Translations under genes and position numbers: made by a program | The notes under the pieces: generated by a model | The model's database searches: none | What the model was told of the DNA's origin: nothing | Seen by the model: the letters and a program-made list of their open reading frames with translations, nothing else | DNA from: Zancudomyces culisetae HAW-14-8 | Lineage: Eukaryota; Fungi; Kickxellomycota | Direction: 5' to 3' | Length of the DNA: 64,000 nucleotides | Assembly: GCA_052426225.1 (NCBI GenBank) | Contig: JBNJNM010000024.1 | Location: 1-64,000 of the forward strand | Shown here: positions 42,920-64,000 of the stretch, in pieces | Layout of the letters: every line of letters starts with the position of its first letter | How positions within the stretch are numbered: position 1 is the first letter of the stretch

Positions 42920-43363
42920 TTATTCGTTCGATAAATTTTCAATTAATTGTTTCTCCTCTTTACTCAATTTTTCTATCTTAACAGATTTAGTTTTTTTATC
43001 TCTTGTATGTACCTCTCTCTCATCCTGTGACATATGAGACCAGCAACTGTATTCGTTACTTTTAGGTGCCATACATTGTTGATCATTCTTCTTTCTTCTA
43101 GTACATCTGTTTTCTTCACTGATAACCTTCTTGCTTTTTGTCGATTTTATATTCGATAATTTCATATCATCCAACATATTAATAAGAGTAGATATATCCA
43201 CATCTTCATTATAATTATCTAATTTATCTATAATTTCATCAATTGTCTCATCTCTTATAGCATCTCTCAATTCCTTTTGAATTCTTTTACTCATTTTTAT
43301 TAATATTATTCTGCTTATATAAAAATAATATATATTAAATTTGCAGTCATCATCTAAATTCAT
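42920..43363 (-). CDS. C3H Zn-finger protein (copy 2)
   Basis: Identical to 16888-17331. Confidence 0.6.
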   Translation of the reverse strand: MNLDDDCKFNIYYFYISRIILIKMSKRIQKELRDAIRDETIDEIIDKLDNYNEDVDISTLINMLDDMKLSNIKSTKSKKVISEENRCTRRKKNDQQCMAPKSNEYSCWSHMSQDEREVHTRDKKTKSVKIEKLSKEEKQLIENLSNE

Positions 43364-44768: not shown

Positions 44769-45001
44769 TGTAGCTGTAAGATTGATATCATATAAATCTT
44801 TCAGCGTACCTTATAAGTTACTAATATCACATATATTAGGAGCAAATTGCGATAAAATAGGTAAATTAAGACTTAAACTCGAGGCCAATAGAAATCTGAT
44901 TCAAGAAGGAGTTTACATACTACCACCCATCAGATGGATTACATCATTTGATGTCATTGATACATTTGAAATTGAATGCATAGTGGATAACGTTAAAGAA
45001 A

Positions 45002-45457
45002 ATGAAGTGTGCTATATGCCTGGAAACAAATTGCAAAAAGAACAATATGTTAATGGAAAACATGGATTATTTTTCGGAAATAACACAGAAAACTTTAAGC
45101 GCTTTTCATAGAGCCGGTTTAGATTCTGATGTTTATGATGAAATTAATTCTCTAAAATTAGCAATTAGCGAAAAAACTATGATATTAATTACTGCTGAAG
45201 AAATTGAAGGGGGGAAGGTTAAAAGATTTTTTGATACGGGTGATACAGATATAGTTGATATAAAAGATATATACACTACAAAATATTATACCAAAGATAC
45301 TGATAATTTAAGAAAACATTCGGTCGTTATAGATGCTTTAAATAGAAAAGAAAGTAATATATCCAAAATATATAGTTCAAAGAATATTGATAATTTGAAA
45401 TGCGATAGAAAAAAAATTGATAAAATAACTGAACATATATTTTTTAAACGCAATTGA
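45002..45457 (+). CDS. RNA polymerase trigger-loop subunit (copy 2)
   Basis: Identical to 18970-19425. Confidence 0.75.
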   Translation: MKCAICLETNCKKNNMLMENMDYFSEITQKTLSAFHRAGLDSDVYDEINSLKLAISEKTMILITAEEIEGGKVKRFFDTGDTDIVDIKDIYTTKYYTKDTDNLRKHSVVIDALNRKESNISKIYSSKNIDNLKCDRKKIDKITEHIFFKRN

Positions 45458-45970
45458 CAAATATTTTTTTGTCAGCCGATTTTATTTGGTAAATAGTATA
45501 TATAATATATCTGTTAGCTTTACACGATGATTTTATTAAATAGTTATAGCATAAAACTATAAAAAATACTCATATAAAATATCTATCTAACCAAGCTTTA
45601 TACATGGTATATTTTTATCGAATGTAATATTTAATACTTTACAAATAACATACTATTATAATTGTAAAAGTATTAAATATATTATATGACCCTATGCGAT
45701 ATTATATTTTTTAAGCGATATTATATTTAATAATTTCATCTAACAGAAAAATATAAATCTGGGAGATATGGATATTTTTTATATTTATGTTTATTTCGCG
45801 GCATAACTGTCCAGTTATTATTGATAACTTTTTTTAAATATTATAAATAGGTTTAAAATAGTATATAATACGGATTTAAAACCATTGTTGAAAATATAAA
45901 TATATATGAATATAATTCAGAATATTCAAATTTACCGTATCCAAATTATCACCGAAAAAATATAGTCAAT

Positions 45971-47308
45971 ATGGATGAATATCAAATAATAAAAAATATA
46001 ATTCCGAATTATTCTTTCGAGTGTGATATAATAGATATCTTTCATCAGTTAAACATTTCAAACACAAGAGAAATCTATGATGAAAAAATAAGAAACATAG
46101 AAGCAACAACAAATTACGATAAAGCTAATAAATTTTCATTGTTATATAAAGATAAATTCGTATGTATAGACTGCGATAGAAAAATATTTTACGTTTTCAA
46201 TAACGGTATATGGGAAATTGATCATGGTAATATATGTTTGATTAAATATATTATAAATTTCTATCCATCTTGCGGTAGTAATTTCAATAAAAGAAAGAGT
46301 TTTATAAATGATATAGCACTACATTCTTATAATAAAAAATTTACAGAGAAATTAAGCAATTTTAAATCTATTAGAATTGGGAATGTATCATTTGATGTAT
46401 TTAACGGCAATCTGAGAGATGGTTATCCCAATGATTACTGTTCTATAAATACTCACATGCCTTTAAATATAGATTATAAAGAGAAAGTATTGCGTATGCT
46501 AAAAGATATATTCCCTCAAGAAAATATAATGAAATATTTCTTAAGATATGCCGGCTCATTGTTAATACCTGGAAATAAAGATAAAATATTCATGATTTGG
46601 AATGGTATAGGTAATAATGGCAAATCTATATTGGCGAGATTAATCGAGTTGGCTATGGGAGAATATTCTATAAAATTACCGACATCTCTTGTAACTGGTA
46701 AAAGAACAATATCGTCTGGAGCCACACCAGAACTGGCTCTATTGGAAAAAAAATTGGTAGCATTTCTACAAGAACCGTCTCATGATGAGAAGTTAAATAT
46801 AGGGATAGTTAAAGAACTCACAGGAAATGATACCATATATGTAAGAGGACTATATAAAGAAGGTTCGAATATAAATGTGCTTGCGAAAATAATATATATA
46901 GTAAATACAACAGATAATATAGCAGTATTGGAAGAAGCTATATGGAATAGAATAGTTGTTTTACCATTTATATCCAATTTTACAGATAAAATAATACTCC
47001 CTAATGATTTACCTGTAGATAAAATGTTAGGTGGTAAGTTAAGAACATATGCCGGTTCATTTATGGAAATAATGATTGAAGAAGCGCGTAGATATATAAA
47101 TGAAGGATTGTTGGAATGTAAAGAGATAGAAGAATCAACAAGAGCCGTACAAGACGAGAATGATATTATAATTAAATATATAAAACAAAATAGATTCAGT
47201 AGTAATAGCTACGAAGGATTGATTGCTTTTATTAGAGATTTTCATCCGCAAGCGCAAGTACCGAGTTTTAAGTTATTCAATAAAAGAATAAATACTATAA
47301 ATGTATAA
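45971..47308 (+). CDS. D5-like SF3 helicase (copy 2)
   Basis: Identical to 19939-21276. Confidence 0.93.
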   Translation: MDEYQIIKNIIPNYSFECDIIDIFHQLNISNTREIYDEKIRNIEATTNYDKANKFSLLYKDKFVCIDCDRKIFYVFNNGIWEIDHGNICLIKYIINFYPSCGSNFNKRKSFINDIALHSYNKKFTEKLSNFKSIRIGNVSFDVFNGNLRDGYPNDYCSINTHMPLNIDYKEKVLRMLKDIFPQENIMKYFLRYAGSLLIPGNKDKIFMIWNGIGNNGKSILARLIELAMGEYSIKLPTSLVTGKRTISSGATPELALLEKKLVAFLQEPSHDEKLNIGIVKELTGNDTIYVRGLYKEGSNINVLAKIIYIVNTTDNIAVLEEAIWNRIVVLPFISNFTDKIILPNDLPVDKMLGGKLRTYAGSFMEIMIEEARRYINEGLLECKEIEESTRAVQDENDIIIKYIKQNRFSSNSYEGLIAFIRDFHPQAQVPSFKLFNKRINTINV

Positions 47309-47453
47309 TATTACATCGGTAGTATTTTAAAAGATGTATTATATTTATGTTTTAAAAGATGTATTATATTTATGTTTTAAAAGATGTATAAAATAAAAAT
47401 CAATACGGATTTAGCAGCTTTAGTGATATTATATAGATAGAAACAACCCAATA

Positions 47454-47969
47454 TTAAATTTCGGATAATGTGAGTTTAGATATATCTATTTCCAGATCAC
47501 TATCTTTTACTTTGCATATTACTATTTCATTAGCATTTAACTGAATAGTAGTTTTTGTATTCATTTGGAAAATGGATTGGACAGTAATTGATATACATGC
47601 GTAGAAAATTTTACCGGTTAAATCGGTATTTAGAATTTTTCTAGTTTTTACATCAGTTATTCTTGTTTTATCATTTATGTTTATTTTAATGTTGCCGTCA
47701 TAAAAAGGATCAGTTACTGTTATGTCATATTTTTCTGATATTGAATCTATTATATCATTTATCATCTTTGTTAGAACTTTAGATTTCAACAAAATTTGTC
47801 TCTTGTTATATTTAGTTGTTGTTATACCATCTATTATCATGAATTTGTTTTTCTCTGATATCTGTAGAATCCCTCCATCATAGTATATATCGATTAGAAA
47901 TCCCTCACCCAATTTTCTTTTATCGTCGGATAAACTTATCAATGTTTTATCTATGCTATTATATATCAT
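47454..47969 (-). CDS. Candidate SSB (copy 2)
   Basis: Identical to 21422-21937. Confidence 0.35.
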   Translation of the reverse strand: MIYNSIDKTLISLSDDKRKLGEGFLIDIYYDGGILQISEKNKFMIIDGITTTKYNKRQILLKSKVLTKMINDIIDSISEKYDITVTDPFYDGNIKININDKTRITDVKTRKILNTDLTGKIFYACISITVQSIFQMNTKTTIQLNANEIVICKVKDSDLEIDISKLTLSEI

Positions 47970-48011
47970 TTTTTGATCTTCGACTTTCTTTTTTTATTAT
48001 TATTACTATTT

Positions 48012-49775
48012 TTATTCTTTGAGATATATTTGCTCTTCAAAATAGTAGTTATTTTTTGAAATATAGTCTATTATGTTGATATTTTTATCAATTTTGAGTG
48101 TTTGTTTTATTATTTCCCATTCATCACGATTCATATTATCTATAAGTTTACCTCTTCTTTGAAATTTTTTATTCTTCGTTATATCTATATATGTAAATCT
48201 TAATCTTCTATCTACACAACTTCTCCATATAAGTGGAGTGTTTGGATAATCGCGAGTTGTAAATATGTTCATATCCGAGCATACGCTTATAGATTTCTTT
48301 CGATTTACGATATCATAACACTCAGCTTTATCCGGATATACATTGCACCATGATATTTTATTTTCATTTATATCGAAGCATTTCCTAAAATCCCATATAA
48401 AATCATCAATTTGAAATATTTGTATATTATCGGGTATTGGTGGATTGAATATCTCGGCTAGAGGTTTGCATACGTTTTCTGTTTTAATATCATTCATAAC
48501 TTCCAATATCTTTATATTTTTATCGTATGCTATTTTGTACATATCAATATCTATAGAATTTAAGCATACATGCTTATATATTTTTATTTGTACATTGGAT
48601 GTATGAGAACCTTTTCGTATAACACGGCCTATAGCCTGATTTATATATCCGTAATTCCAATACGGTGTTAATATATGTACATTTGTTACGTTTTTCAAAG
48701 TTATAGATTCGTTAAGCACGTTACTTCCTATCAAAAGACGTATTACTTTTCCGTTATAATTTTGCAAGCTATTGAAATCCCGCAATATATTATTTATTTC
48801 TTCGGTAGATACATTACCATTTATTACAGCATAAGATTTCTCCTGACCTCTTACTGTTGTCCAACCTAAATGATTTAAAACATCGCATAAAAACGTAATC
48901 CCTCTTTTTATATAATAAACAAAAACTACAACCAATTCATTTTCTGGTATGTTATTTATAAGAAAATTTATTTTGGCTGACTGTTCTTCTAAAGGAATAT
49001 TTTTGTTATAAACACCGGTACTTAATGTTAGCTGACGTAATGTTGTATATATATCTTTGCATTTTTTACCTTTTTCATCATTATATTTTTTTAACTGTAA
49101 ACCTTTCATTTCGGTCGCGAATAGCATATTGTTATTGATTATATCTTTTTCCGAATTATTCGAATATTTTATATCTTTATTTAGTATATAAACACCATAT
49201 CCGTATTTAAACGTGTTTTCGGCATAAGCTATTGGCGTTTCTATGGGTAGCATATTGCATAATGATTTCAATTCGTTAGGATTATCTATCATTGGCGTGG
49301 CTGATATTATAAGAAGTTTCGAGTTGGTGGAATCATGCATTTTCTTTTTTATATATGTATATCTGCTAGCATTTTCTCTCATATTGTGAGCTTCATCTAT
49401 AATTACCAAAGAATTGTCTATATTCACTTTATTTCTCGAGAAGCTTGTTAAACCGTAATATTTTATATTCATACTTTTACTATTTAATCTATTCTCATTT
49501 ATAAAAATTTTATATTCATTCTTAAAATTTGTTATTGTATTTGTGTTATGCGATATGAAAATGACATCAAAACCATTGATATTGAATAAATATGATAAGG
49601 CAGCTGCGCAGTAAGTTTTTCCAATTCCCAACTGAAATGATAGTAGTAGACTTCTATATGGTGTTTTAGGATGCATATATGATAAAACAAAATTTTGTTC
49701 CGGGGTTGTTGTGGTAAATGATACATTTTCGATGCAGTTATGAGGGTTATCTTCGTAATATATTGGAATATTCAT
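48012..49775 (-). CDS. D6/D11-like SF2 helicase (copy 2)
   Basis: Identical to 21980-23743. Confidence 0.92.
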   Translation of the reverse strand: MNIPIYYEDNPHNCIENVSFTTTTPEQNFVLSYMHPKTPYRSLLLSFQLGIGKTYCAAALSYLFNINGFDVIFISHNTNTITNFKNEYKIFINENRLNSKSMNIKYYGLTSFSRNKVNIDNSLVIIDEAHNMRENASRYTYIKKKMHDSTNSKLLIISATPMIDNPNELKSLCNMLPIETPIAYAENTFKYGYGVYILNKDIKYSNNSEKDIINNNMLFATEMKGLQLKKYNDEKGKKCKDIYTTLRQLTLSTGVYNKNIPLEEQSAKINFLINNIPENELVVVFVYYIKRGITFLCDVLNHLGWTTVRGQEKSYAVINGNVSTEEINNILRDFNSLQNYNGKVIRLLIGSNVLNESITLKNVTNVHILTPYWNYGYINQAIGRVIRKGSHTSNVQIKIYKHVCLNSIDIDMYKIAYDKNIKILEVMNDIKTENVCKPLAEIFNPPIPDNIQIFQIDDFIWDFRKCFDINENKISWCNVYPDKAECYDIVNRKKSISVCSDMNIFTTRDYPNTPLIWRSCVDRRLRFTYIDITKNKKFQRRGKLIDNMNRDEWEIIKQTLKIDKNINIIDYISKNNYYFEEQIYLKE

Positions 49776-50008
49776 AATATTAATTGTTTTTTATATCTTG
49801 AAATGTTATTAATAAATGAATATTATATGAATGTCTTTAAGAATAGTATTGTCAGGACTGGATTAGAATGAATACTTATGTTTAATATATATTAAATATA
49901 GTGCTATATATAGTATAAAATACCGAATATGCTATATGTAAAATGGCAATGTGATTGTTTAGATTCTGAAAATATATTATTCATATTTGGTATATAAAAA
50001 GGCAAAAA

Positions 50009-50044
50009 AAGCCCCCCATATACTGACGGGGGGCTTCTTTTTTT
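50009..50044 (-). terminator. GC-rich stem-loop, copy 2
   Basis: Same as 23977-24012. Confidence 0.55.
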
Positions 50045-50093
50045 ATAATATATAGCTATATAAAATATAAATAGCTATATAAAATATAAATAG

Positions 50094-51197
50094 CTATATA
50101 TTATCTTTTATTTTATTTTTATTTTTATTTTTATTTTTATTTTTATTTTTATTTTTGGTTTCATTCAATGATCTTAATCTAGCTTGCTCCATTAGCATTT
50201 TATGACGAATGTCTTTTTTTTCTTGTTCTTTTTCGTATCTCATCTTCTCAATAGCTTGTTCTTCTTTAAATTTTCTACTAAATTCTTCTATTTCTTCTCT
50301 TTCCTTAGCTTGCATTCTATATTTATCAAACTGTATTTGCATTTCTGGTGTTATTAGTTGACCACGCCATGTATCTCTATTTAGACTATCTTTACCAAAT
50401 CCTGTTTTTACATTTCTTATATCAATATCGTGATTTATACCATCATCACCGCTATCTGATAATATTTCAAGTTCTTGAGTGGGTTTAGCTTCTTGGATAG
50501 GTTTAAGTTCTTGAGTGGGTTTGATATTATAAATTACACGCATATATCTCTGTTTCTTATTCGGATACTCATAAGAATCTTTCTCTTTTTTGGCGAATAC
50601 TATAAGTTTATCTTCGTAATGTTTATTGCAAAATACCGATGAACCTCTTTTATCTAAACAGAAAACTCCATCTAACCATATACATGTGCGAGCTTTAATT
50701 CTTTTATTTATAGAGAATCTTTTATGTAATCCGCACAATAATAATGATCTCTTACCTATCTCTTGTTCATCTAAATTCTTTATCATTCTATTACAATAAG
50801 TGATGCTATCTTTAGATTTTACTATACAACGACCATCTATATGAGCTTTACTTTTTGTATGAATACCACATGTTTCATATCCATCCAATGCTTTGTATTT
50901 GCAATTTAATCCTTTTTTGGTTAAAGCGTTACATTTAATATTAATCTCAGACTTAATATTAATCTCGGACTTAATATTAATCTCGGACTTAATATTACTC
51001 CTTATTTTGCTATGTATTCCGCATTTTTCATTACCCTGTTTTTTTATACTTCTATTACAATATAGTTTATTTTTCATTATATAAGAACATCTACCTTCTA
51101 TATGAGTATCACTACTTATATGCTTACCACATACTTCATAGTTAATAAGTGGCTTATATGCACATTTAACCCCTGATAAAGTTTTTGCTATACACAT
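50094..51197 (-). CDS. Multi-C3H Zn-finger protein (copy 2)
   Basis: Identical to 24062-25165. Confidence 0.7.
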   Translation of the reverse strand: MCIAKTLSGVKCAYKPLINYEVCGKHISSDTHIEGRCSYIMKNKLYCNRSIKKQGNEKCGIHSKIRSNIKSEINIKSEINIKSEINIKCNALTKKGLNCKYKALDGYETCGIHTKSKAHIDGRCIVKSKDSITYCNRMIKNLDEQEIGKRSLLLCGLHKRFSINKRIKARTCIWLDGVFCLDKRGSSVFCNKHYEDKLIVFAKKEKDSYEYPNKKQRYMRVIYNIKPTQELKPIQEAKPTQELEILSDSGDDGINHDIDIRNVKTGFGKDSLNRDTWRGQLITPEMQIQFDKYRMQAKEREEIEEFSRKFKEEQAIEKMRYEKEQEKKDIRHKMLMEQARLRSLNETKNKNKNKNKNKNKNKIKDNI

Positions 51198-51394
51198 TTT
51201 TTATATTCGATTTTACTGGTTTGATTTGAGCAAAATAGTTGTCCTAATTTTTTATGTGATAATTCGTATATCAATATATTCTCGATATTAATATCAATTT
51301 TTATATTTTGAAATCCTAAAGAATCATATATGATATATATTTATTATAAAAAAACATCGATGATAAAAAATAAAAAACAATCTAACATTATATA

Positions 51395-53209
51395 ATGGAT
51401 GATAAAATACAAAAAATCGAGAATATATTAAATGTATTCGAATCTATACAATGTAATGTATTACATACTAATATAGAATTGGAAGCTAGAATGTGTATAC
51501 CCCCACCTACAAACTTTATAGATTATGAGACTATAACAATTCAATATTATAAATCTCAAGATTTACCAACATTAACTATACGAAAGGAATATGGAAAGGA
51601 TTATATAGAAACAAAAGAACTAGTCGATAGAGTTATTATAGAAAATATTAATATAGTATGTTCTGTAGAGAAAAGATATAGAAATTTTGATTATATATTA
51701 AATAAACACATATTAAGAAAAATCGACAGGCTCAAAATACAAGATAATCCATTAGTAGTTATAAATAGAGAAAATAATATATATATGTTGGAAGTTGAAT
51801 TTGAGAGAGATACACTATCCGAGACAATAGATATATTGAATAGTTATTCTGTACCATTTTGGCCGTGTGTAAAACCACAAGATGCTTACGCATCAGAAAT
51901 ATTATCTAATATAGATAATAATATATTATATATATCGCCTAAATATGATGGCGAACATGCTGTTATGTATCTCGATACTGAAACAAGGGTAATATGTATA
52001 ATTAAAGATAATGGAGAGATAAACATGAGCAATTCATTGGATAATTTTGATACTGTTTATGAAGTTGAATTGGTAAATACCGACATATTTATATTGGATA
52101 TAATGATGTATAAAAATGTCAAGTTAACAGATAATAATTATTTAGATAGATTAAAATATGCAAAATATATACAAGATATAACTCATAATTATATAGTATA
52201 TAATGAAGAAACTCGGAAATATATATCCGCTGATATAATAAAGAATGAACGTATACCTGAAAATATATGTTCGATAAAACTAAAAAATATATATAAAATA
52301 ACAGATTATGATAGTTTGCGAAATGCTAAAGATAATATATATAATATTTCAGCAAAAATAGACGGTGTTATATTGACCAATGAAAAGGGTTATTATAATA
52401 CAGTGTATAAATCTAAACCAAATCCTACAGTTGATTTACAATATATTAATGGATATTTATATTTAGCTAGAGAAACCAATTCGCAAAGAATATCTCATAT
52501 CGAGCTGGAAGAAGGATGTATATATGAGTTTGATATAAATTTAAATCCAATTAGAAAAAGAGAAGATAAACTTATTCCAAATTATTATATGCCGGTTAAA
52601 GATGATGTTATTGATAATATATGCACAGGACATGGTATTCCATGTCTAAGATATCACCATAACAAAATAAAGCTTATTATGCTAAAAAAATTTAATGGAA
52701 TATTATTAGATATAGGTTCTGGATTGGGTGGTGATATATCTAAGTGGGATCATTTCACTAAAGTGTATGCTATAGATCCCGAGACCAGGCTTAGAAATGT
52801 ATCGGCAAATATAACATTTCTAAGATGTAAAGTTCAAGATATAAAAAATATATATTTTGATATAGTAAGCATATTTTTCGTACCATGGTGTAACGATTTC
52901 ATCAAATTCATGCTCCGATCTAAACATGCTCTACTTATTATTATGGATAAACCTTCCGATCTAGATAGTGATAATATAAAAATTACCAAATTGGAAAACA
53001 ACATGGTAAATATAAATATACCCAATACTAGTACAGCTTCGAATATAACGGAGGAAATACCAGATATAAAAAATATAGATAATATTATGATTGGAAACGG
53101 ATATAAAAAACATGATTTGACTCATAAATATAACATATCATTTGCGACTAAAGAGGAAAAAGAACTCTCCAAAATGTACACATATATAATATACTCCAAA
53201 ATAATGTAA
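51395..53209 (+). CDS. Trifunctional mRNA capping enzyme (further copy)
   Basis: Identical to 25363-27177. Confidence 0.93.
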   Translation: MDDKIQKIENILNVFESIQCNVLHTNIELEARMCIPPPTNFIDYETITIQYYKSQDLPTLTIRKEYGKDYIETKELVDRVIIENINIVCSVEKRYRNFDYILNKHILRKIDRLKIQDNPLVVINRENNIYMLEVEFERDTLSETIDILNSYSVPFWPCVKPQDAYASEILSNIDNNILYISPKYDGEHAVMYLDTETRVICIIKDNGEINMSNSLDNFDTVYEVELVNTDIFILDIMMYKNVKLTDNNYLDRLKYAKYIQDITHNYIVYNEETRKYISADIIKNERIPENICSIKLKNIYKITDYDSLRNAKDNIYNISAKIDGVILTNEKGYYNTVYKSKPNPTVDLQYINGYLYLARETNSQRISHIELEEGCIYEFDINLNPIRKREDKLIPNYYMPVKDDVIDNICTGHGIPCLRYHHNKIKLIMLKKFNGILLDIGSGLGGDISKWDHFTKVYAIDPETRLRNVSANITFLRCKVQDIKNIYFDIVSIFFVPWCNDFIKFMLRSKHALLIIMDKPSDLDSDNIKITKLENNMVNINIPNTSTASNITEEIPDIKNIDNIMIGNGYKKHDLTHKYNISFATKEEKELSKMYTYIIYSKIM

Positions 53210-53247
53210 TAAATATTTTATGATGTTTTTATATTAAAAATAATATT

Positions 53248-53388
53248 TATTTTTCGAATAACAAAAAATATGTATACTAATATTATCGAAATATATATAT
53301 TGTATATAGGAATATAGCATATCATCAAATAACAATATATAAAAAAAGTTTTAAAACTATTTTTATTTAAATAACTAACTATTTAAAA
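53248..53388 (+). repeat. Recombinant IR at the inversion junction (IR-A outer flank, IR-B inner alleles)
   Basis: Preceded by the capping-gene flank as IR-A is, but carries the IR-B variants (CTATTTTTA with 5 T; TAACTAACT) and continues into the reverse complement of 11963 and below. Confidence 0.93.
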
Positions 53389-53427
53389 CTCTCGCATATT
53401 ATCAATTAACGATATAAATAAAATAAA

Positions 53428-54351
53428 TCATTTTCTCATTTTCGATATTTTATTTTTAATATCATCGGGGATTATATCTTTATATCTATCCAATAATAGA
53501 TCTATTCTATTTAGACCGGGATCTATTTTGTAAGTTTGCATCGGTTTGCGTGTGTATGTAGGTGATGGTTTTGGTTTCGTGTATGATGTATTCACACCGT
53601 CAATATACGTATTTAATTTATCTTCATTTTTAGCTTCTGGTGTTATTTTTGGTGTTTTTTTCTTATTTAATATTTCTCTATAATTAACAGCTTTACTACT
53701 TACGCCATTCGCATATATCTTTGTTTTCGCGGGCTTATTATTTTTTCTGTTAGTCTTTTTATCATTTTTATCATTTTTATCATTTTTATCTCTTTTATCA
53801 TTTTTATTAGCTTCGCGATGGATACGAACCTTTGTTCTCGCGGATGAGGCTGTATTTATATATTTTTTACCATTTATATTTGTTACATTGAAATTCAATA
53901 TATCATTACTCCATGATAGACAATCATTATTTGACATCTGACACTGTGTGTTATTTAATCCGGAATTATTTATTTTGGAAGGGTATAACATATTTTCATT
54001 TTTTTGTATGAAGAATTCTTCCTCGAAATATAAACAATCACTTTCATAATCAGCATTCAATATACCATAATGGGTAAATGTAGTATTTAAGTTTTTTATA
54101 GCATATTTATTATCACCCATATTATCAAAAACTAGTAAAGGATCTGTAACCATATCATCATTTATAATTTTATATGTACTTCTGATTACATGTCTATCAT
54201 CCGCTGTAACCCCCTTGTATAAATTAACCCCGTTGATACTATAACATAGATAAGATAAATTATCCTCTATATCATTCATTAGTAGAAAGAAGACGGTATC
54301 ACCAGCATGTATACCGCATAAAAATAAAATATATAATAATATATCTCTCAT
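53428..54351 (-). CDS. Secreted hypothetical protein (inverted copy)
   Basis: Identical to 11001-11924. Confidence 0.65.
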   Translation of the reverse strand: MRDILLYILFLCGIHAGDTVFFLLMNDIEDNLSYLCYSINGVNLYKGVTADDRHVIRSTYKIINDDMVTDPLLVFDNMGDNKYAIKNLNTTFTHYGILNADYESDCLYFEEEFFIQKNENMLYPSKINNSGLNNTQCQMSNNDCLSWSNDILNFNVTNINGKKYINTASSARTKVRIHREANKNDKRDKNDKNDKNDKKTNRKNNKPAKTKIYANGVSSKAVNYREILNKKKTPKITPEAKNEDKLNTYIDGVNTSYTKPKPSPTYTRKPMQTYKIDPGLNRIDLLLDRYKDIIPDDIKNKISKMRK

Positions 54352-54498
54352 TTCAATTATATTCTATTTTATATTGGTATATTCTATTTTTATATTGGTA
54401 TATAATATTTATATTTATTAGACAATGTTCAAATATGATTCTTTATTAATCTAATTAAAATATATATCATAAATATATCATAAATATATTATATAAGT

Positions 54499-57400
54499 AT
54501 GCTAGCGTTATTTATTATTGGTATTTTATTTATACCAAACATTAACAGTTATTGCAGCAAATGTCAAGATTGGGCATTAGGCGTATCTATCGTATCATAC
54601 AGTGGTACATATAAAGCTGTTGATCAATACAACTCATTATCAACTTCTGGTTGGGATAGTATGAGCTTTGGTAACTATAAACTAAACATTAGACGTGATG
54701 GATATTTTATTTTGTCCGACAAAGATTCTGGTGTATGGTGGAGTGGTACTTCGGGTTCGGCTAGTAAGTATGATGTTGTGATGCAGCCTGATGGTAATCT
54801 GGTATTATATGCAGATGGTAATAAAGCTACATGGGCTTCTAACACTGCCAACAGAGGAACGGGTCCGTATTGTGCTATGCTTCAACGTGATAGAAACTTT
54901 GTTATTTATGATAATAATTGTTCAGCTACGTGGGCTAGCAATACAGTAAAACCTGATCCAACTCCGGATAAAGATGGCAATTGTTATTTTATAACAGTGC
55001 AACCTGGTGATTGGTGTCAGAAAATTATAGATGACGCTGGCATTTCGTCAACTCAGTTATTCGATTATAATAAAAGTACATGGAAATGGGATGGGTGTGA
55101 TAAACTATACCCTGGTCAGAAATTATGTATATCTCCTGGTAAACCTCCTATTCCAACTCCAGATCCCAATGCAGAATGTGGTCCTTTAGCACCCGGAGAT
55201 AAGTATAATACCGATTGTCCTTTAAACGCTTGCTGTGGTGAATGGGGTTATTGTGGCATTACCGAAGACTTCTGTAAAAAGAAAAACAGTACAACTAACG
55301 CTCCAGGCACTACAGGTTGTTATAGTAATTGTGTTATCGAATACGTAATGTCCGAACCCCCTTCTAATTTTAGAAAAATTGCTTATTATGAAACATGGAA
55401 TCAAAACTGGCCATGCTTGAACAAACGTATTGACGAAATAGACTGGTCTCAATATACCCATCTTCATTATGCATTTGCCGATATTGTTGATTATAATGTC
55501 CAAATGGATTTCAGAGCTAGAGAGCAATTCGAAGCTTTTAAATCTCTTAGAGGTATTAAGAGAATATTAAGTATAGGTGGTTGGGGTATAAGTACAGATA
55601 GTGGTACATATAATAATCTTAGAAAAGCTGTAGCTAATTGGGAAGTATCTGCTGCAAATGTGGCCAAATTTATTATCGATAATAATCTGGATGGTGTAGA
55701 TATAGATTGGGAATATCCAGGAGCTACTGATATTCCAGGTGTTCCAATTGGTGATTCTTATGATCCAATATATTATACATTGTTTGTTTATGAATTATTT
55801 ATTAAACTTTATCCATTAGGTAAGACTGTATCTATAGCGGCACCAGCTAGTTATTGGTATCTTAAGAATTTTATAATAGATATAATGTCGGAATTTACAG
55901 ATTATATAGTATTTATGACTTATGATTTGCACGGACAATGGGATTATACCAATTTATGGACAGGTAATTATCTTAAGTCGCACGTAAATATGACTGAAAC
56001 TTTAGAAATGCTAGCTTTGATAACACATGCAGGCGTAAAATCCAATAAAGTTTTATTAGGTATTGCTAAGTATGGTAGAACTTTTGGCATGGAAGATCCC
56101 AACTGCTACGGTCCAGATTGTAGATTTGCCGGTATAGAATCAAAAGCAAAACCGGGTAAATGTACAAATACACCTGGTTATTTAGCTTTGGGGGAAATTA
56201 GAGATATTCTGAAAAGCGAAACTATAAGAAAACATTATGATGACGATCTATCTCAGATTCTGGTATATGGTACAGATCAATGGGTTTCTTATCTTACAGA
56301 TGAACAAATTAGCTTCAGAAATGATCTAGCCTCATTCGCCAATATGGGGGGTACTGTTACGTGGGCAGAGGATCTAGATGCCGGAAATAAAATATCATGC
56401 GACACATCAGATATATACGATTTCAATACACTACTGTCATCATCATGTACGCGTAACTATTTAAGAGATATTATGGTTGATTATATAAAAGGTGTAATAT
56501 CATACTGGAGAAGCAATGCATCTTTAACTTATGATAGTGATATAAAACAATTCAAAGATAAATTCAATATAGTATATTCTATAAGTTCAAAAGCCGATTA
56601 TGATGAATTATTTACAAAAATGGATAAGTTTATAACTAATATAGATGTTAAAAATGATAATAACTACGCCATATTATATTTTTATTATAAGAGATGTATC
56701 GTATTTGGTTCTTCCATTAATTATAATAATAAAAAGAGAGGATTAAATGAACCCTTTGTTGGAATGATAAATACTTCAGCTATTGGTGTTTTTGTTTATA
56801 CTGGAGTTCAAGTGTATACAAGTGGGTTACAAGCTGCTTTATTGGCGATATCAATACCAGGGCTAGCTTCTGGTGTAGTTGTCGGAGCAATTTCACTTGG
56901 TTTACTCGCTATCGCCACGATAATAGCAAATTATAATAAAGACACATTTCCCATCCCCGATGATCTAATGAAAATTATTAATAGTAATCAAGCGAATTTA
57001 GAACATACAATAGAATTAATAAATAATCCCACAAATTCAAAGTATCCTGTTGATTTTGTAATAAATGATGATTTAATAGGGTATGATATGGAAAAATATC
57101 AGGATCAGTATAGTATTCAACCGGTAAGTGATATGCCTATGATTTTACAACATAAAGCTTATTTTAACTGGTATAAAAAAGCTACGAGTCCGCAAAATTA
57201 TTGTGTTAGAAATCCCAATATAGATGATGATTATAATATATTTACGAAAACTATAACAGAAAATAATGATGGAGATGATGAGCCGATATACTATGTAAAC
57301 TTTCACGGTCGGAGCGTAGGTGTAGCATGCAATGCTTATATTTATTTCGTGTTTACAGAAATTAATAGACTTAGACTTATTAATGGGGATGATGATGCAA

Positions 57401-57948
57401 TAGATGTCCCGCAAGAACTACTACCCGTTGCATATAATACATTTACACGTCGACCAGACGGTCGAAAGAATGACGACCCTTATCTAGATCAGCATTCGTG
57501 CGTTAATCTACCCGGTCGAATAATTAATCGAAGTGATAACAAAACAATGGTAATACCAGATTATCAAAGAGATGAATTTCCATTTGGAAGTATGAGTGAA
57601 GGAATGAATAACATAACAAATCCGGACGAATATTATATTTCTGTTAGATGCGTTTATAAAAGTGAAAATACATATGACGGTATACAATTTCGCCATTTTT
57701 TAAATGCGACTGGAATTTGGAAAAAAAACGACATATTAAATCCTTTATCATCTCCTCGCGTTGGACCTATACCTCCCGGGGGGGCTTTTCGAGTATATTT
57801 ATTAAATTTCAACCCAACTCTATGTCAGCAATCAGCTATTATTCCTGTGAGAACAGGATTACGACAAGGAGTAAGAAATTATTTCAATGAGTTTTTTCCT
57901 GTTAGTAACGAGCCTGTAATTATACAGCAAAGAAAAAAAGGAATATGA
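54499..57948 (+). CDS. GH18 chitinase / nuclease killer toxin precursor (inverted copy)
   Basis: Identical to 7404-10853. Confidence 0.9.
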   Translation: MLALFIIGILFIPNINSYCSKCQDWALGVSIVSYSGTYKAVDQYNSLSTSGWDSMSFGNYKLNIRRDGYFILSDKDSGVWWSGTSGSASKYDVVMQPDGNLVLYADGNKATWASNTANRGTGPYCAMLQRDRNFVIYDNNCSATWASNTVKPDPTPDKDGNCYFITVQPGDWCQKIIDDAGISSTQLFDYNKSTWKWDGCDKLYPGQKLCISPGKPPIPTPDPNAECGPLAPGDKYNTDCPLNACCGEWGYCGITEDFCKKKNSTTNAPGTTGCYSNCVIEYVMSEPPSNFRKIAYYETWNQNWPCLNKRIDEIDWSQYTHLHYAFADIVDYNVQMDFRAREQFEAFKSLRGIKRILSIGGWGISTDSGTYNNLRKAVANWEVSAANVAKFIIDNNLDGVDIDWEYPGATDIPGVPIGDSYDPIYYTLFVYELFIKLYPLGKTVSIAAPASYWYLKNFIIDIMSEFTDYIVFMTYDLHGQWDYTNLWTGNYLKSHVNMTETLEMLALITHAGVKSNKVLLGIAKYGRTFGMEDPNCYGPDCRFAGIESKAKPGKCTNTPGYLALGEIRDILKSETIRKHYDDDLSQILVYGTDQWVSYLTDEQISFRNDLASFANMGGTVTWAEDLDAGNKISCDTSDIYDFNTLLSSSCTRNYLRDIMVDYIKGVISYWRSNASLTYDSDIKQFKDKFNIVYSISSKADYDELFTKMDKFITNIDVKNDNNYAILYFYYKRCIVFGSSINYNNKKRGLNEPFVGMINTSAIGVFVYTGVQVYTSGLQAALLAISIPGLASGVVVGAISLGLLAIATIIANYNKDTFPIPDDLMKIINSNQANLEHTIELINNPTNSKYPVDFVINDDLIGYDMEKYQDQYSIQPVSDMPMILQHKAYFNWYKKATSPQNYCVRNPNIDDDYNIFTKTITENNDGDDEPIYYVNFHGRSVGVACNAYIYFVFTEINRLRLINGDDDAIDVPQELLPVAYNTFTRRPDGRKNDDPYLDQHSCVNLPGRIINRSDNKTMVIPDYQRDEFPFGSMSEGMNNITNPDEYYISVRCVYKSENTYDGIQFRHFLNATGIWKKNDILNPLSSPRVGPIPPGGAFRVYLLNFNPTLCQQSAIIPVRTGLRQGVRNYFNEFFPVSNEPVIIQQRKKGI

Positions 57949-58412
57949 AATATTTATTTTTTAAAATGTCTAGTATAGAAATTAATAATCTGAAAGAATT
58001 ATTTTTCAATTCATCTGATAAATATAAAAATAACAGTATAGCTATTTTATGCTGTCATTATTCGGGTTTAAATTTGTCAAATGGTTATATAAGAAGAACA
58101 ATAACATCAACTAAGCGTGCCGTGAAATATCATAAATCAGATATTATACAATATGTAGAAGATATAAATATACATAAAAATATAATAGCTATATTATGTA
58201 CGCCTTTAATATCTAATAGTGATGAAGATGATAAATTAATGATGCACTTTCTTAAAATACTTAATTGCTCTAAAGCTATGATTATATATCCAAGTTCTGT
58301 AAGAATTTTTTCTATGAATAATGAAGGTACGAATATATATCAATTTTTCAGTTTTGATGCATCAACACAATTAACCGATCTGATATCATATTTAAGGGAT
58401 TTGAGACATTGA
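57945..58412 (+). CDS. Candidate immunity protein (inverted copy)
   Basis: Identical to 6940-7407. Confidence 0.5.
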   Translation: MKYLFFKMSSIEINNLKELFFNSSDKYKNNSIAILCCHYSGLNLSNGYIRRTITSTKRAVKYHKSDIIQYVEDINIHKNIIAILCTPLISNSDEDDKLMMHFLKILNCSKAMIIYPSSVRIFSMNNEGTNIYQFFSFDASTQLTDLISYLRDLRH

Positions 58413-58473
58413 AGCATCACCTATTATTATATGAATATATAACTCATTTTAAAATATTTAAATTAATATTAAA

Positions 58474-59394
58474 ATGAATATAGACGAATACAACCCTTTA
58501 AGCAGTATTGTTTGTAATTATGCAAATTTTAAATTCATAATACCTGGTGAGTTTAAATCTGTATCTATCGATGACAATATTTTCTGTATAAAAAATGAAC
58601 ATCACTCTTTGGGAGAAGAATTTAGCATATTATTAAATGAAAATGGAGATAAAATGTATATTGCGCATAATAATAAATATTTATGCATGATGAACGATAA
58701 AATGGGTGCGTGTGATCATTTAAATGATAATATAATTATTCTGGATAAAGTATTTAATGACTACAGATTTTGTGATGTATATAGAATAAAGTGTGGAGAT
58801 CTATATTTAAATAAAAGTATGACTTTTGAATATTCCGATAAAAATGCAATTATATTACAACTGGACTCGTCTAATATGATAAATACTGATAATTTGTCCA
58901 ATTTTGCATCTGACACGCAAGATGTAATAACAATGAATGGTATCAGTATTCGAAATAAAGGTGCATTTTTTATGCGTTTAGCTCATGAGGGTGAAACTGC
59001 TTATATTACTATAAACATAGATGACGACATTCCGAATGAAAATGATATAGGAAAAGTGTATATATTTGATGATAAATTTTATAACTCACCATTTGGAATA
59101 TTTTTTGAATTCTATAAAGATGATATTGATGATAAAGAAAAGACTTATCTAAAAGTTATGGATCTTATCAGTAGAGAGGAATATTATATAAATTCATATT
59201 TTAAACTATCTATAAATCGTATAGATGACGGTATTGAGTTTGTAGAATCTAAATATAAAAGCGCATATTATATAAAAAATATAAAATACAACACATATTA
59301 TGCTATAGAAGACATTAATTTCGGGCATCCATATGAAATAAAAAATATTGATGATATAAAAGATGCGTTATTATTTCAGTTTATTCATTTTTAA
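58474..59394 (+). CDS. Hypothetical, possible beta-trefoil protein (inverted copy)
   Basis: Identical to 5958-6878. Confidence 0.5.
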   Translation: MNIDEYNPLSSIVCNYANFKFIIPGEFKSVSIDDNIFCIKNEHHSLGEEFSILLNENGDKMYIAHNNKYLCMMNDKMGACDHLNDNIIILDKVFNDYRFCDVYRIKCGDLYLNKSMTFEYSDKNAIILQLDSSNMINTDNLSNFASDTQDVITMNGISIRNKGAFFMRLAHEGETAYITINIDDDIPNENDIGKVYIFDDKFYNSPFGIFFEFYKDDIDDKEKTYLKVMDLISREEYYINSYFKLSINRIDDGIEFVESKYKSAYYIKNIKYNTYYAIEDINFGHPYEIKNIDDIKDALLFQFIHF

Positions 59395-59420
59395 TATTTT
59401 AAAGTTTTAAAATTTTTAAT

Positions 59421-59834
59421 TTATTGAACTTCATTATTAAACCAATTTATGCATGCTCCAAAAGCATTATCGCAGAATGTCTGGCAGTATACCGACGAGT
59501 AAAGATCATAACAATCAAAATTAAGTTTATAGCCATTACCTTTACACGTGTAGAATGGCGTGGTATTTATTTTATATGTGCCATTGGAAAAATCAATGTT
59601 TAAATCACCTATTCCCAGTTCGACATGATAATTTCCTTCATAGAATCCCATAGTTTTAACTCCTAAAGCAAAACTGTCGTATTGTTTCATTTTCACATCA
59701 TTGTATAAATAGACACATGCCGAACCTACATTGTGAAATGGTTTGGATTTATATCCTGATAGTATAAATAAGCATGAATCAACCTTTAAAACAAATAAAA
59801 TATTAAAAATAAATAAACTGAAATAATAACGCAT
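59421..59834 (-). CDS. Small secreted Cys-rich protein (inverted copy)
   Basis: Identical to 5518-5931. Confidence 0.6.
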   Translation of the reverse strand: MRYYFSLFIFNILFVLKVDSCLFILSGYKSKPFHNVGSACVYLYNDVKMKQYDSFALGVKTMGFYEGNYHVELGIGDLNIDFSNGTYKINTTPFYTCKGNGYKLNFDCYDLYSSVYCQTFCDNAFGACINWFNNEVQ

Positions 59835-59997
59835 CTTTTATATTTTTAGTATTGGATATAAATATAGGGAAACTATAATTTTCATCATTTATATTATAAT
59901 ATGTGTTATGAATCACATTTTTTATAAAATACATACCTTTATATTTAGATTCTACAAATTCAATACCATCATCTATACGATTTATAGATAGTTTCAT
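59803..59997 (-). pseudogene. Partial duplicate fragment (inverted copy)
   Basis: Identical to 5355-5549. Confidence 0.75.
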
Positions 59998-60138
59998 TTC
60001 TTGATCGGGATAATAACTTTCATTATTTTCATAATTAAATATTGTAAGTTATATGTATTATTTTTATTTTTTCAATTTTGCTATATTAGAATATATTTTA
60101 AATATAAAACTACTTAATATAGTAAAACGTTGAAAATA

Positions 60139-61335
60139 TTAAATACTTTCCGACGATTCGATTAATTCTGACGATGTAGCCAATGGAAGTATACCAGTAT
60201 TCCCATCTTTAATATAGCTATAAAATGTTACAACCCTCCCAAATAATTCCATAATTTTATATAGAAAATGTCTACATTCGACATTAGCTATTATTTCATC
60301 AGTATCATCGAAAACGACTAATTCATTCAAGACGCATATATTTTCCAAATTATACAACTCATTTTTTAATTCAATTTCTCGTTCTATTTCATAATTAGTT
60401 TTATTAACATTTTTTTTATACAATTCTAATTCTTTATAACATTTATGATTTACTAATATTTTTTTTATATTTTCAGGTGTAAATTTTATATAATAAAATC
60501 TGGGTATTAACCCCATAAATAAAATACCAAAAATCATATCATCCTTAAAATCTTCCGAAGTAAAACCATCTTTACCTATACGTTTGAAATATAACAATAA
60601 CATTTCTCCAAATAATTGAGCTCTAGCTTTCCCTATAAGTGTAGACGAATTAGTAACATTAGTTGACTTTTTATTTTCTATAGCAATGTTAGCATAATTC
60701 TTTCTATCAGTTATTCCTATATCAATTTCAGATGAAAATTCTAAAAGATGATTATTTATATTTATGGTAAATTTGCCAATAGCGAATGAATTGTCTGGGG
60801 CAAATCTAAATATACTAAGCAGTTTGGCCACATAAGAATCAACAATATTCTCGCTAACGTATGCATCACGCATAAAAATATATAAATCCAAAACAAATTC
60901 AAGTATTTTGAATTCTTTAAGCATAGTGTTCATTTCATCCCTAGTTCTAAAATCATCTTTATACAAAATATCGGTATATGTTTTTAACGCATCTATATAT
61001 TCTGGCTTCATGATATTTTTTGCTTTAACAATTTCAATATAATCATTCAAACTACACTTGATTATATTATCCAATTCTTTTATACCGATAGTATTTATGA
61101 ATTTTTCGAAAAGAGAATATCTATAATGAATGCTATCTATACTTCTATTAAATTCTATAGATGCAAATCTAACATTTAATCCAGATTTTATGTATTTATC
61201 CGACCAATGACTTGCAGAATCGAATATATAAGTATCATTATCATCAAAAAATTGACTCTGATGTTTTCTTTTACTGGCTGATGAAGGTGATATTGAAGCT
61301 TGGTTGTTATTATCGGGCGAAATTGATTCATCCAT
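60139..61335 (-). CDS. Putative PD-(D/E)xK nuclease-like protein (inverted copy)
   Basis: Identical to 4017-5213. Confidence 0.55.
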   Translation of the reverse strand: MDESISPDNNNQASISPSSASKRKHQSQFFDDNDTYIFDSASHWSDKYIKSGLNVRFASIEFNRSIDSIHYRYSLFEKFINTIGIKELDNIIKCSLNDYIEIVKAKNIMKPEYIDALKTYTDILYKDDFRTRDEMNTMLKEFKILEFVLDLYIFMRDAYVSENIVDSYVAKLLSIFRFAPDNSFAIGKFTININNHLLEFSSEIDIGITDRKNYANIAIENKKSTNVTNSSTLIGKARAQLFGEMLLLYFKRIGKDGFTSEDFKDDMIFGILFMGLIPRFYYIKFTPENIKKILVNHKCYKELELYKKNVNKTNYEIEREIELKNELYNLENICVLNELVVFDDTDEIIANVECRHFLYKIMELFGRVVTFYSYIKDGNTGILPLATSSELIESSESI

Positions 61336-61666
61336 TATTTATATGTTATATTTTTTGATATATACTCGATATATGTTTAGTTCCATTAATAATTACAAAT
61401 CAAATAGTATATTATTAATAGCATGTATATTATACTGTTAATCAATATATATTTATAAAAATACGTGATAATAGTATCAATCAAAACATATTTTTAATCC
61501 TAATAAAAAGATAATATTTTTTTATCCTTTATAGTATTCAATGGATATTATTTGTTATAACGAAAAAAATGATTTCGGATTAAAATTATTCAAGTTGAAT
61601 AAAAAATAACAAATTGATAATATATATTTAAAATAGTAATATTCGACTTTTAAAAATATTGGATTA

Positions 61667-63760
61667 TTATATATTGTTTACCATTCTAAACACTTTACCG
61701 GATGCTTCCATCACCGAATCTATTGATTTAGAAATGTTATTTAAATACCACTTATAATCAATGGGGTCGGTATTATCAATGGGTCTTAGTTTATCTCCGA
61801 GATTATTTTTACCATTTTCCGTAGTTGATACGAATACAAAAAATGTTTCACCTTTTTTTAATGGTCCGTATTTTCTATTATATACTTCTAATGGATAATT
61901 ATCCATTTTATAAGGTCCATTGTATATTTTCTTTATAATAAATTCGGATTTATCTAAAGTATGAATATTTGATATCAGCATTCTACAGTGATCTCTAAAC
62001 AATATATCATTCATTACTCTATATGTTATATCTTTATATATACTAACTGCAAATTTGCATCTATCTCTTCTAACAGCTACTACTCCTTTATATTTAATAT
62101 TATTATCATAATCCAATGTTATATACATTTTCTTACCTAATGAAAGAAATTTTTTATATCTACATTCAAACTTCATTTTTATCGGATCTGGAAATAGATT
62201 AGTAACTTCATCAGCTAGTTTTATATGCATTTCATCATTCATTTCCACATCGTTTGTATATATACACGAATCTGTATCGCCATATATTACATCAAAACCT
62301 TTATCAGTTAAAAAAGTTATAGATTTTTCCAGATTTATTCTACCTATATAAGTTATCCTGGATGCAGCTTGTGTAAAACATAACTCACCAGCAGAACCAA
62401 AAATTCCATATACAGAATTTGCACATATTTTTAATGCATTAGCATATGGTTTATTATTTTTATATTTAACTCTAGCATCAACTAATTTTTTTACCATGTT
62501 GGGAATAATACCAAATTTAGTTTTATCAAAGAATTTACCATTCCATGTACTATAGCATATATTTTCGGAAATTATAATAGAAGGATATAATGATGTGAAG
62601 TCCATACATGCAGCATGTTTATATAATTTTGGTTTGCATTCTACAACTATAGCTCCTTTATATTCATCTTTATCATATTTGTTAAATTCCATATGATAAT
62701 TATACTTTTTACATTCGATATATAACATATTTTTCATTCTTATCTGCTGCCCCCTAGTAAATAATTCTTCAACATTGGTATATGTTATATTAGATAAAGA
62801 AATGATGCTTTCCAGCATGGAACATTTTTTTGCGATATCCATGACCAATAGACAATCTTTGACGCAATATTTTACTATATCGGATATTTTATCTGGATTT
62901 TTATGTATGTTATCCCATAAATCCCACATTTCATAAGAATTTAAATCTTCTTTATATCCGCAGTTGAAAAAATTGGAAACGGTATTTAATCTATAATCGT
63001 CTATATTAAATGTACGTTTACAGTAATGATATAGATCTACACATAATATACCATCTATACTAGGGTAGCTTATATCATTATTGGTGTATGCAGAACTACT
63101 CCATGTAATTTCAATCATTTTTGAATCTAGTGGATGTCTAGCATTTATATATCTCCAGTCGAAACCGTGTGTATTATAACCAATTAATATATTTGCAGAT
63201 TTTATATAATTGTAAAAATTGATAATTAATTCATCTTCGCTATTGCAATATTTAATGTTGGTAGATTTTATATCTATATTGGTATTAATAAATGTTATAT
63301 TATCGCATTTATTAGATACGACACTTATGCATATAATTGAATCTTCTTTTTTCTTAGGATCTGGGAATGTTCTATCGCGAGAATAGACTTCTATATCAAA
63401 ACTCATTATATGCAATTCGGGAATTATATCTATGGATAAATAATATATATCATGCATAGATAAATTTTCCAGATCATTATTAATTAATTTGATCCAGCAA
63501 CATTGTTTCAAACCTTTAATATAAAGAAATTCCAGTACACTATTCTTATGTTTTCTAGTTTGTATATCTACCATTACATCTTTTGACATTATAAGAGATT
63601 TTTTTCTTAAATTGCAACCTTTCACTTCTACAGTGGGATAAAAATCTTTTATAATTATATAAACATTATCTTTATCTTTATTAGCGATACCGTATCCATA
63701 TATCCAATTATTTTTATATTCCCATTTATAGATAAAAATTTTCATTGTTTCTTTATCCAT
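61667..63760 (-). CDS. polB: Family B DNA polymerase (inverted copy)
   Basis: Identical to 1592-3685. Confidence 0.97.
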   Translation of the reverse strand: MDKETMKIFIYKWEYKNNWIYGYGIANKDKDNVYIIIKDFYPTVEVKGCNLRKKSLIMSKDVMVDIQTRKHKNSVLEFLYIKGLKQCCWIKLINNDLENLSMHDIYYLSIDIIPELHIMSFDIEVYSRDRTFPDPKKKEDSIICISVVSNKCDNITFINTNIDIKSTNIKYCNSEDELIINFYNYIKSANILIGYNTHGFDWRYINARHPLDSKMIEITWSSSAYTNNDISYPSIDGILCVDLYHYCKRTFNIDDYRLNTVSNFFNCGYKEDLNSYEMWDLWDNIHKNPDKISDIVKYCVKDCLLVMDIAKKCSMLESIISLSNITYTNVEELFTRGQQIRMKNMLYIECKKYNYHMEFNKYDKDEYKGAIVVECKPKLYKHAACMDFTSLYPSIIISENICYSTWNGKFFDKTKFGIIPNMVKKLVDARVKYKNNKPYANALKICANSVYGIFGSAGELCFTQAASRITYIGRINLEKSITFLTDKGFDVIYGDTDSCIYTNDVEMNDEMHIKLADEVTNLFPDPIKMKFECRYKKFLSLGKKMYITLDYDNNIKYKGVVAVRRDRCKFAVSIYKDITYRVMNDILFRDHCRMLISNIHTLDKSEFIIKKIYNGPYKMDNYPLEVYNRKYGPLKKGETFFVFVSTTENGKNNLGDKLRPIDNTDPIDYKWYLNNISKSIDSVMEASGKVFRMVNNI

Positions 63761-64000
63761 TGTCTCTGAATACTATTAAGGATTTTTATTTATAAAATTT
63801 AGATATTTTTTAATTGTGATTGACTAATTACAAATTAAATCAAATATGCATAATAAGAAAATATACAATAATGTCTCTATAATTATAGAAGAAGGATTAA
63901 CATGGGAGGATAGCAAAAAGAGATTCTGTATATTAGAAGGTAATATACAAAAAGTATATATAAGATATATTATAAAAAAGTATGGTTTCGACGCTGCTAT

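Follow-up and report, generated by a model that had tools for sequence, protein, structure and literature searches.

Introduction

Known systems close to the element reported here include the plasmid pair pGKL1/pGKL2 of Kluyveromyces lactis and the fusion plasmids of Saccharomycotina, which are linear, have terminal proteins and encode a pPolB polymerase (PMC11848437). Virus-like elements (VLEs) from Cunninghamella, Umbelopsis and Coemansia, described by Heneghan, Salzberg and Wolfe (2026; PMC13348850), are also close; they are treated there as linear and protein-primed, and VLEs are assigned a dual origin, with transcription genes from giant viruses and a polymerase from polinton-like viruses. 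Here we analyse positions 1 to 64,000 (the window, 64,000 nucleotides long) of contig JBNJNM010000024.1 from Zancudomyces culisetae HAW-14-8 (assembly GCA_052426225.1), in which the repeated element is, judged by its predicted genes, a 26-kb killer-helper fusion VLE. Unlike the VLEs as described from those three genera, it encodes a family B DNA polymerase (PolB) of predicted RNA-primed type, a PrimPol and a D5 helicase, and its short arm is assembled in both orientations.

The named relatives of the element come from Cunninghamella, Umbelopsis and Coemansia, which by itself would point to a host outside the Dikarya. The element has in common with their VLEs an RNA polymerase, a capping enzyme, a superfamily 2 (SF2) helicase, DUF5483, DUF5482 and DUF5474 proteins, a chitinase and the killer-helper fusion itself. 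With pGKL1/pGKL2 and the Saccharomycotina fusions it shares toxin-side and helper-side blocks, a zymocin alpha/beta-like chitinase and a fused RNA polymerase; it differs from them in being a unit split by inverted repeats (IRs) and in lacking a terminal-protein region (PMC11848437). Two Umbelopsis fusion VLE contigs, from U. isabellina (36 kb) and U. nana (53 kb), contain internal IRs and are without terminal repeats (PMC13348850), and these VLEs may have the same layout as the present element; on the other hand, the accessible text of the U. nana paper names no circular contigs apart from mitochondrial ones (PMC13042297). The words circular, primase and inversion and the stem concatem- are absent from the accessible main text of that paper, and no circular, isomerising or primase-bearing VLE was reported in the literature searched, including the accessible parts of PMC13348850, PMC13556262 and PMC13442484, with subscription journals mostly outside the search. 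Alignment of the PolB to metagenome and viral contigs returned, among the matches listed, distant polymerases (best-segment identity 21-34%, at least 80 loci each), and a scan for RNA polymerase relatives with DNA context returned one distant locus. None of 29 and none of 44 candidate DUF5483 relatives with DNA context aligned, and the start of the IR had no exact match in viral contigs.

Two arms joined by inverted repeats, one of them reversed

Self-BLAST of the window revealed a 26,032-bp unit repeated head-to-tail, with the 10,640-bp short arm reversed in the third copy. Positions 1-27355 equal 26033-53388 save for one mismatch and one gap, both within the last IR, and the reverse complement of 1352-12104 matches 53248-64000 exactly (10,753/10,753 bases). 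The unit is divided by IR-A (1184-1323, + strand, 140 bp, repeated at 27216-27355) and IR-B (11964-12104, - strand, 141 bp, repeated at 37996-38136) into two unique arms: the short arm S (1324-11963; 10,640 bp), which holds the DNA polymerase and toxin-like genes, and the long arm L (12105-27215, identical copy at 38137-53247; 15,111 bp), which holds the primase, helicases and transcription genes. Each arm is base-for-base identical in every copy present. Every arm joint holds one IR copy, and the copies face inward when seen from S and outward when seen from L. Chance is ruled out for the repeat itself (E 3e-64).

The outer 116 bp of IR-A (1184-1299) are the same in IR-B. Nearer the short arm the two repeats differ at two diagnostic sites, of which one is a single-base indel in a run of T and the other a G/A change. 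At the recombinant junction J3 (53248-53388, + strand) the long arm stops on its right side with the outer flank of IR-A; there follows an IR of IR-B type at both diagnostic sites, and after it the short arm, entered from its far end. The exchange therefore lies within the 116-bp identical outer core. These results reproduce exactly the unit geometry, IR coordinates, arm sizes and reversed third arm described in an earlier sequence-only reading of this DNA, and agree with its account of the junction IR and with its placing of the exchange in an identical outer part of ~110 bp. Beyond J3, 10,612 of the 10,640 bp of the reversed third short-arm copy (53389-64000, - strand) are inside the window. 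The reciprocal junction begins 28 bp beyond the window end, so one crossover is visible here rather than a complete two-ended inversion. Phasing the IR takes a read or k-mer of at least 117 bp, and k of 116 or less leaves it unresolved.

The repeats are internal: sequence continues across them to either side, both in the window and in one of the public runs described below (X1). We considered and rejected the possibility that the IR represents two half-telomeres or a hairpin junction, as it is non-palindromic (self reverse-complement score 34, against 33.9 for shuffled sequence). No target-site duplication flanking S was found by eye.

A predicted RNA-primed replication gene set

The PolB (1592-3685, + strand, 697 amino acids (aa); Pfam PF00136 and PF03104) is of the Pol-delta/archaeal type with a proofreading domain, and matches PF00136 rather than PF03175. 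Its best solved relatives in a PDB search were Pol delta (E 3e-45) and archaeal PolB, and a phi29-type enzyme was absent among the 60 of 67 PDB matches listed. The ExoI motif begins at residue 120, leaving ~115 aa upstream, and the spacing is 57 between motifs A and B and 49 between B and C; the terminal-protein-region inserts of phi29-type enzymes are longer than these spacings permit. By family, PDB matches and ExoI position, we found no sign of a terminal-protein-fused, protein-primed PolB, and the enzyme is predicted to be Pol-delta-like and RNA-primed, without room for a terminal protein.

The other two components lie on the long arm, so that neither arm carries the full replisome. One is a PrimPol-type archaeo-eukaryotic primase (AEP; 12146-13048, - strand, 300 aa) with DxD, SxH and D motifs, a C-C-H-C zinc finger and a stop codon 41 bp from IR-B. 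A 28-sequence profile of this primase matches human PrimPol (E 4e-22) and poxvirus D5, and its structural model (predicted local distance difference test, pLDDT, 85) matches the same folds. The other is a D5-type superfamily 3 (SF3) helicase (19939-21276, + strand, 445 aa), which belongs to PHROGs primase families and matches C962R of African swine fever virus (ASFV; E 2e-11). Sequence and model comparisons together make a putative RNA-primed replisome of PolB, PrimPol and D5 helicase well supported, and this gene set is a more solid novelty than the inversion. RNA priming needs no protein-capped ends, so that a closed genome would be possible.

In a quick tree with midpoint root, the PolB and 15 relatives form one side of a branch (16/61 rows; Shimodaira-Hasegawa-like approximate likelihood ratio test, SH-aLRT, 100), which includes a C. 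echinulata protein, 43% identical, from a 68,961-nt contig (proteins P0013/P0121). This clade takes in the C. echinulata helper and an Umbelopsis protein, which have been published or clustered as VLE polymerases. Relatives of the primase, polymerase and capping enzyme occur on contigs of the same sizes (11,679, 13,149, 27,204 and 10,068 nt), a hint that these genes travel together. The C. echinulata 69-kb contig holds four helper copies 94% identical to the helper of C. blakesleeana (PMC13348850, supplement), whose polymerase belongs to 'Group 5', a group for which a terminal protein could not be established (PMC13348850). We infer that 'Group 5' is the RNA-primed PolB clade of the present element. 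The four copies on the C. echinulata contig alternate in orientation with a varying repeat between them (PMC13348850). Nanopore reads that continue around hairpin ends could give such an arrangement.

A proofreading PolB, an AEP primase and a D5-type helicase are shared with poxviruses and ASFV (PMC9415595), and recombination is expected to ride on replication here as well; with the RNA polymerase and capping enzyme they complete a Nucleocytoviricota-type set. In contrast to those viruses, primase and helicase each have a gene of their own, neither a capsid nor a resolvase family was found, and the window contains no hairpin-type head-to-head junction.

The arms and repeats in public sequencing runs

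Nine public runs from six studies contain sequence words of the element. Four of them (X1-X4, of which X1 and X2 belong to one study, which might itself be the source, and X4 is a rhizosphere run from a different study) were aligned on positions 1-5300, which cover IR-A and its flanks, the IR-B flanks being visible only as loose ends. In X1 the IR core forms a separate 100-nt contig of depth 29.4, and its neighbours have depths of 12.5 on the long arm, 16.7 on the short arm and 14.1 for a piece of IR-B type, such that the IR depth is about the sum of its flanks; the fourth joint was inferred from a contig break among the matches listed. In X2 the core stands on the IR-B outer flank and forks to two inner pieces, while X3 contains IR-B plus its inner flank. 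Because contigs of X1-X3 join the arms through the IR, the two-IR, arm-IR-arm layout is not peculiar to the present assembly. Arm depths are alike (18.8 against 16.7 in X1, 9.0 against 8.3 in X2) and, depth being a rough guide and not a copy number, give a rough hint of one replicon. IR-A of X1 and X2 has a 16-nt deletion and one insertion in its inner part (window 1276-1315), differing from the window, and these runs thus carry a different variant, whereas the outer 100 bp are common to the IR copies.

In X4 a single 331-nt contig consists of the IR-B outer flank, an IR-A without differences and 77 nt of the short arm, which is the reciprocal junction. We simulated the likelihood of this contig under patchy coverage with assumed read and fragment sizes. 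The ratio of mixed over single isomer was 1.1-4.1 in eight settings with tip clipping and 3.7-20.7 in four settings with none. Short-k graphs are unable to phase 116 bp, and with these ratios the contig lends the mixed-isomer reading weak support.

Probable homologous recombination rather than a site-specific recombinase

The yeast 2-micron circle is defined by Flp and its FRT target, a dyad with arms of 11-13 bp around a 6-8 bp spacer, and has IRs of 599 bp, compared with 140 bp here. Two IRs, two unequal arms and two isomers are common to both, but the present element has no match to Flp, Rep1 or Rep2 in Pfam and no FRT-like site, and it carries replication and transcription enzymes of its own. 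No tyrosine or serine recombinase family was found by Pfam in any of 52 open reading frames (ORFs; there are 53 distinct ATG ORFs of at least 40 aa, one 40-aa ORF having been left out), nor any recombinase family in PHROGs (13 ORFs) or NCBIfam (12 ORFs). When 186 six-frame ORFs were scanned for motifs, four loose matches appeared and none to the stricter patterns. The sequence-only reading had seen no evident Flp-like recombinase, and these searches uphold it. An FRT/lox-like dyad (arms of 10-13 bp, spacer of 6-8 bp) is absent from both IRs, and IR dyads are not in excess, as 82 of 300 simulations match or exceed them. One short-spacer dyad (1301-1322) was rejected as the crossover site, being inward of the first IR-B allele in J3 and cut by the 16-nt deletion of X1 and X2. 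The crossover therefore falls in plain homology.

The mechanism is likely to be replication-coupled homologous recombination of a poxvirus-like kind, by analogy with poxviruses, in which the E9 exonuclease and I3 anneal homologous ends in a process tied to replication that yields concatemers with all marker arrangements (PMC9415595). Between the two possibilities that the sequence-only reading had left, namely homologous recombination and an unrecognised enzyme, it is the former that we retain as the best reading; the latter finds no recombinase family, convincing motif or FRT/lox-like dyad in its favour.

Homology-driven arm inversion also accounts for segment inversion in herpesviruses, and the present inversion, by analogy, works in the manner of these viruses and of plastids and unlike that of the 2-micron circle. 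Plastid flip-flop isomers arise by inversion of a single-copy arm between IRs and are usually silent, but equimolar isomers there require IRs of many kb, and short IRs yield at best a minor isomer (PMC7145664). The ~150-bp IR of Juniperus plastids, for instance, yields a minor isomer at 0.8-5% (PMC7145664), and in view of such mixed results equal isomer proportions are not to be assumed. In the present element, stop codons lie 38-41 bp from the IR at both long-arm ends. An inversion thus swaps equivalent neighbours, the 3' end of a gene for the 3' end of another, and is likely to be silent or nearly so.

Other genes and features of the element

The housekeeping genes of a VLE are present, namely an RNA polymerase, a capping enzyme, a helicase and plasmid-specific DUFs. 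On the long arm these are a fused Rpb2/Rpb1 RNA polymerase (13227-16511, - strand, 1094 aa, YKP6 type) and an SF2 helicase (21980-23743, - strand, 587 aa, YKP4 type), both from family searches, and an mRNA capping enzyme (25363-27177, + strand, 604 aa, YKP3 type; 38% identity to the Saccharomycopsis selenospora enzyme), whose stop is 38 bp from IR-A. The DUF5483 protein (17318-18736, - strand) has homologues in a Pichia etchellsii plasmid ORF and a Coemansia protein, and is probably YKP9. The DUF5474 protein (18666-19079, + strand; Pfam) we take to be YKP8, and the DUF5482 protein (21422-21937, - strand; family search) presumably corresponds to the single-stranded DNA-binding YKP5. A 151-aa ORF (18970-19425, + strand) has a weak likeness to Rpb1 C-terminal domains and, as a lead only, may be YKP7.

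The killer-type feature is a 1149-aa zymocin alpha/beta-like protein on the short arm (7404-10853, - strand) with an N-terminal B-lectin and with LysM, chitin-binding and GH18 chitinase domains, for which a killing activity is predicted. Its C-terminal NucA/NucB-like domain (residues 990-1072) is barely over the Pfam cut-off and could be a fused cargo. The short arm also encodes a 307-aa ORF with a hydrophobic N-terminus (11001-11924, + strand; stop 39 bp from IR-B) and a 398-aa protein (4017-5213, + strand) from a Mucoromycota/Basidiomycota family without a Pfam name (Atlas 0.97). A D..ExK-like motif was noted in the latter by eye, and it may be a nuclease, conceivably a branch-cutting one, of a large unnamed family; its single-sequence fold was unusable (pLDDT 33). 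A 137-aa Cys-rich ORF with a hydrophobic N-terminus (5518-5931, + strand) looks by eye like possible secreted cargo and has no family match in Pfam, PHROGs or NCBIfam. Around it lies a second, diverged inverted repeat (5358-5567 / 5941-6149; 211 bp, 79%), which looks as if the 3' end of the 306-aa ORF had been duplicated in inverted form; the U. isabellina VLE also has two IR pairs.

No family of major capsid protein or packaging ATPase rose above threshold in Pfam among the 52 ORFs, of which the unassigned ones gave no reliable fold. Imperfect palindromes of 55-60 bp in long-arm intergenic gaps (24013-24072 and 19595-19648) are possible terminators or origins, while GC skew tracks gene strand and indicates no origin. 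The yeast VLE promoter is ATNTGA, and this motif occurs upstream of only 3 of 17 ORFs.

Discussion

We lean slightly towards an account in which the window derives from a 26-kb killer-helper fusion VLE, likely cytosolic and likely closed, whose reversed arm is a natural isomer that arose by a homologous exchange within the 116-bp core. The closed form would be circular or head-to-tail, with the two arms joined via the 140-bp IR. PolB, PrimPol and D5 helicase would run RNA-primed fork replication, during which broken forks could re-anneal at either IR copy and so flip an arm, an exchange that the element's own proofreading polymerase is predicted to drive together with a single-strand binding protein, for which the DUF5482 protein is the candidate. 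The 2.5-copy contig would have arisen when the assembler strung together reads of the two isomers along the long arm that they share. That the flipped isomer is native in itself we consider fairly probable. Since the IR is phased by reads of at least 117 bp, a long-read or high-k assembler would not be expected to build J3 without a J3-bearing read, and two isomers with a common 15-kb arm could be chained exactly as observed. Several points weigh against this account. No read phasing a recombinant junction was seen; the reciprocal junction appeared in only one of the four runs aligned, in a graph that cannot phase 116 bp. A recombination activity of the element's polymerase is argued by analogy only. 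Plastids of two conifers with IRs of 399-440 bp show a single isomer only (PMC7145664), and the closest named relative, the C. echinulata helper, has alternating orientation and terminal repeats (PMC13348850), pointing to linear ends there and to differing end structures within the clade.

With only one isomer present, 0.3-9.5% of the simulations still produced the X4 contig, which, with the inability of k of 116 or less to resolve the IR, would suit a real element of single orientation in which J3 is an artefact: the template may have switched at the IR, a read may be chimeric there, or the assembler may have chosen a path without being able to phase 116 bp. J3 is the sole recombinant junction in the window, its partner being 28 bp outside, all copies are identical as if one consensus had been reused, and assemblers are known to multiply plasmids (PMC10272865). 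We nevertheless judge this explanation rather unlikely: a low-k assembler normally breaks at a repeat, as in the Logan contigs, instead of continuing 64 kb through it, a long-read assembler should meet a single-isomer circle as a simple cycle, and the reciprocal junction in X4 points toward mixed isomers. Improbable, in our view, is a J3 that is native but reflects a single crossover between molecules, a turned fork (an inverted dimer or branched intermediate) or a joint of arms that occur as independent linear replicons too, as in C. echinulata. The window cannot separate a two-ended inversion from a single crossover, and in C. echinulata the helper (16.2 kb) and the chitinase VLE (10.2 kb) stand on different contigs, each with terminal repeats (PMC13348850); however, a non-palindromic IR present once per joint does not qualify as a head-to-head telomere junction or as a terminal repeat common to two linear plasmids, and the IR depth in X1 is about the flank sum with no drop.

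The multiplication of plasmids by long-read assemblers (PMC10272865) also means that the concatemer is not to be taken as native. The multi-copy contig is more likely the product of assembler chaining via the long arm than of amplification, about which the concatemer is uninformative. The remaining explanation, which builds on the amplification suggested in the sequence-only reading, is that an unrecognised site-specific recombinase flips the arm and launches rolling-circle amplification as in the 2-micron circle, the contig being a native concatemer. The two-IR layout with unequal arms and the head-to-tail array with a switch do recall that system, and ORFs of 398, 367, 307, 306, 155 and 147 aa are without assignment. 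Nevertheless, neither a recombinase family or convincing motif in the ORFs searched nor an FRT/lox-like dyad was found, and the only short-spacer dyad is excluded as the site of J3. The element is, moreover, not a host-replicated nuclear plasmid: it has its own replisome, and an element that replicates itself has no need of a trick to evade once-per-cycle licensing. We therefore regard the proposed 2-micron-type amplification as unsupported and very unlikely.

Returning to the homologous isomer of a closed VLE, the inversion is exact and probably native and, if native, is probably a silent by-product, and it is the putative RNA-primed replisome that carries most interest. VLE transcription and toxin genes combined with such a replisome and a probably closed genome would represent an all-Nucleocytoviricota-like state. 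Whether the 'Group 5' helpers form a fungal killer VLE lineage with a miniature giant-virus replisome, including closed genomes that natively flip at a short IR, and so provide a capsid-less link between Nucleocytoviricota and yeast killer plasmids, is to us evenly balanced. If the lineage is real, the linear yeast killer plasmids would have gained protein priming by replacement. The present element also suggests that some published VLE 'terminal repeats' and separate contigs could be assembly breaks at internal IRs, and it makes the order of events in the origin of VLEs testable on trees.

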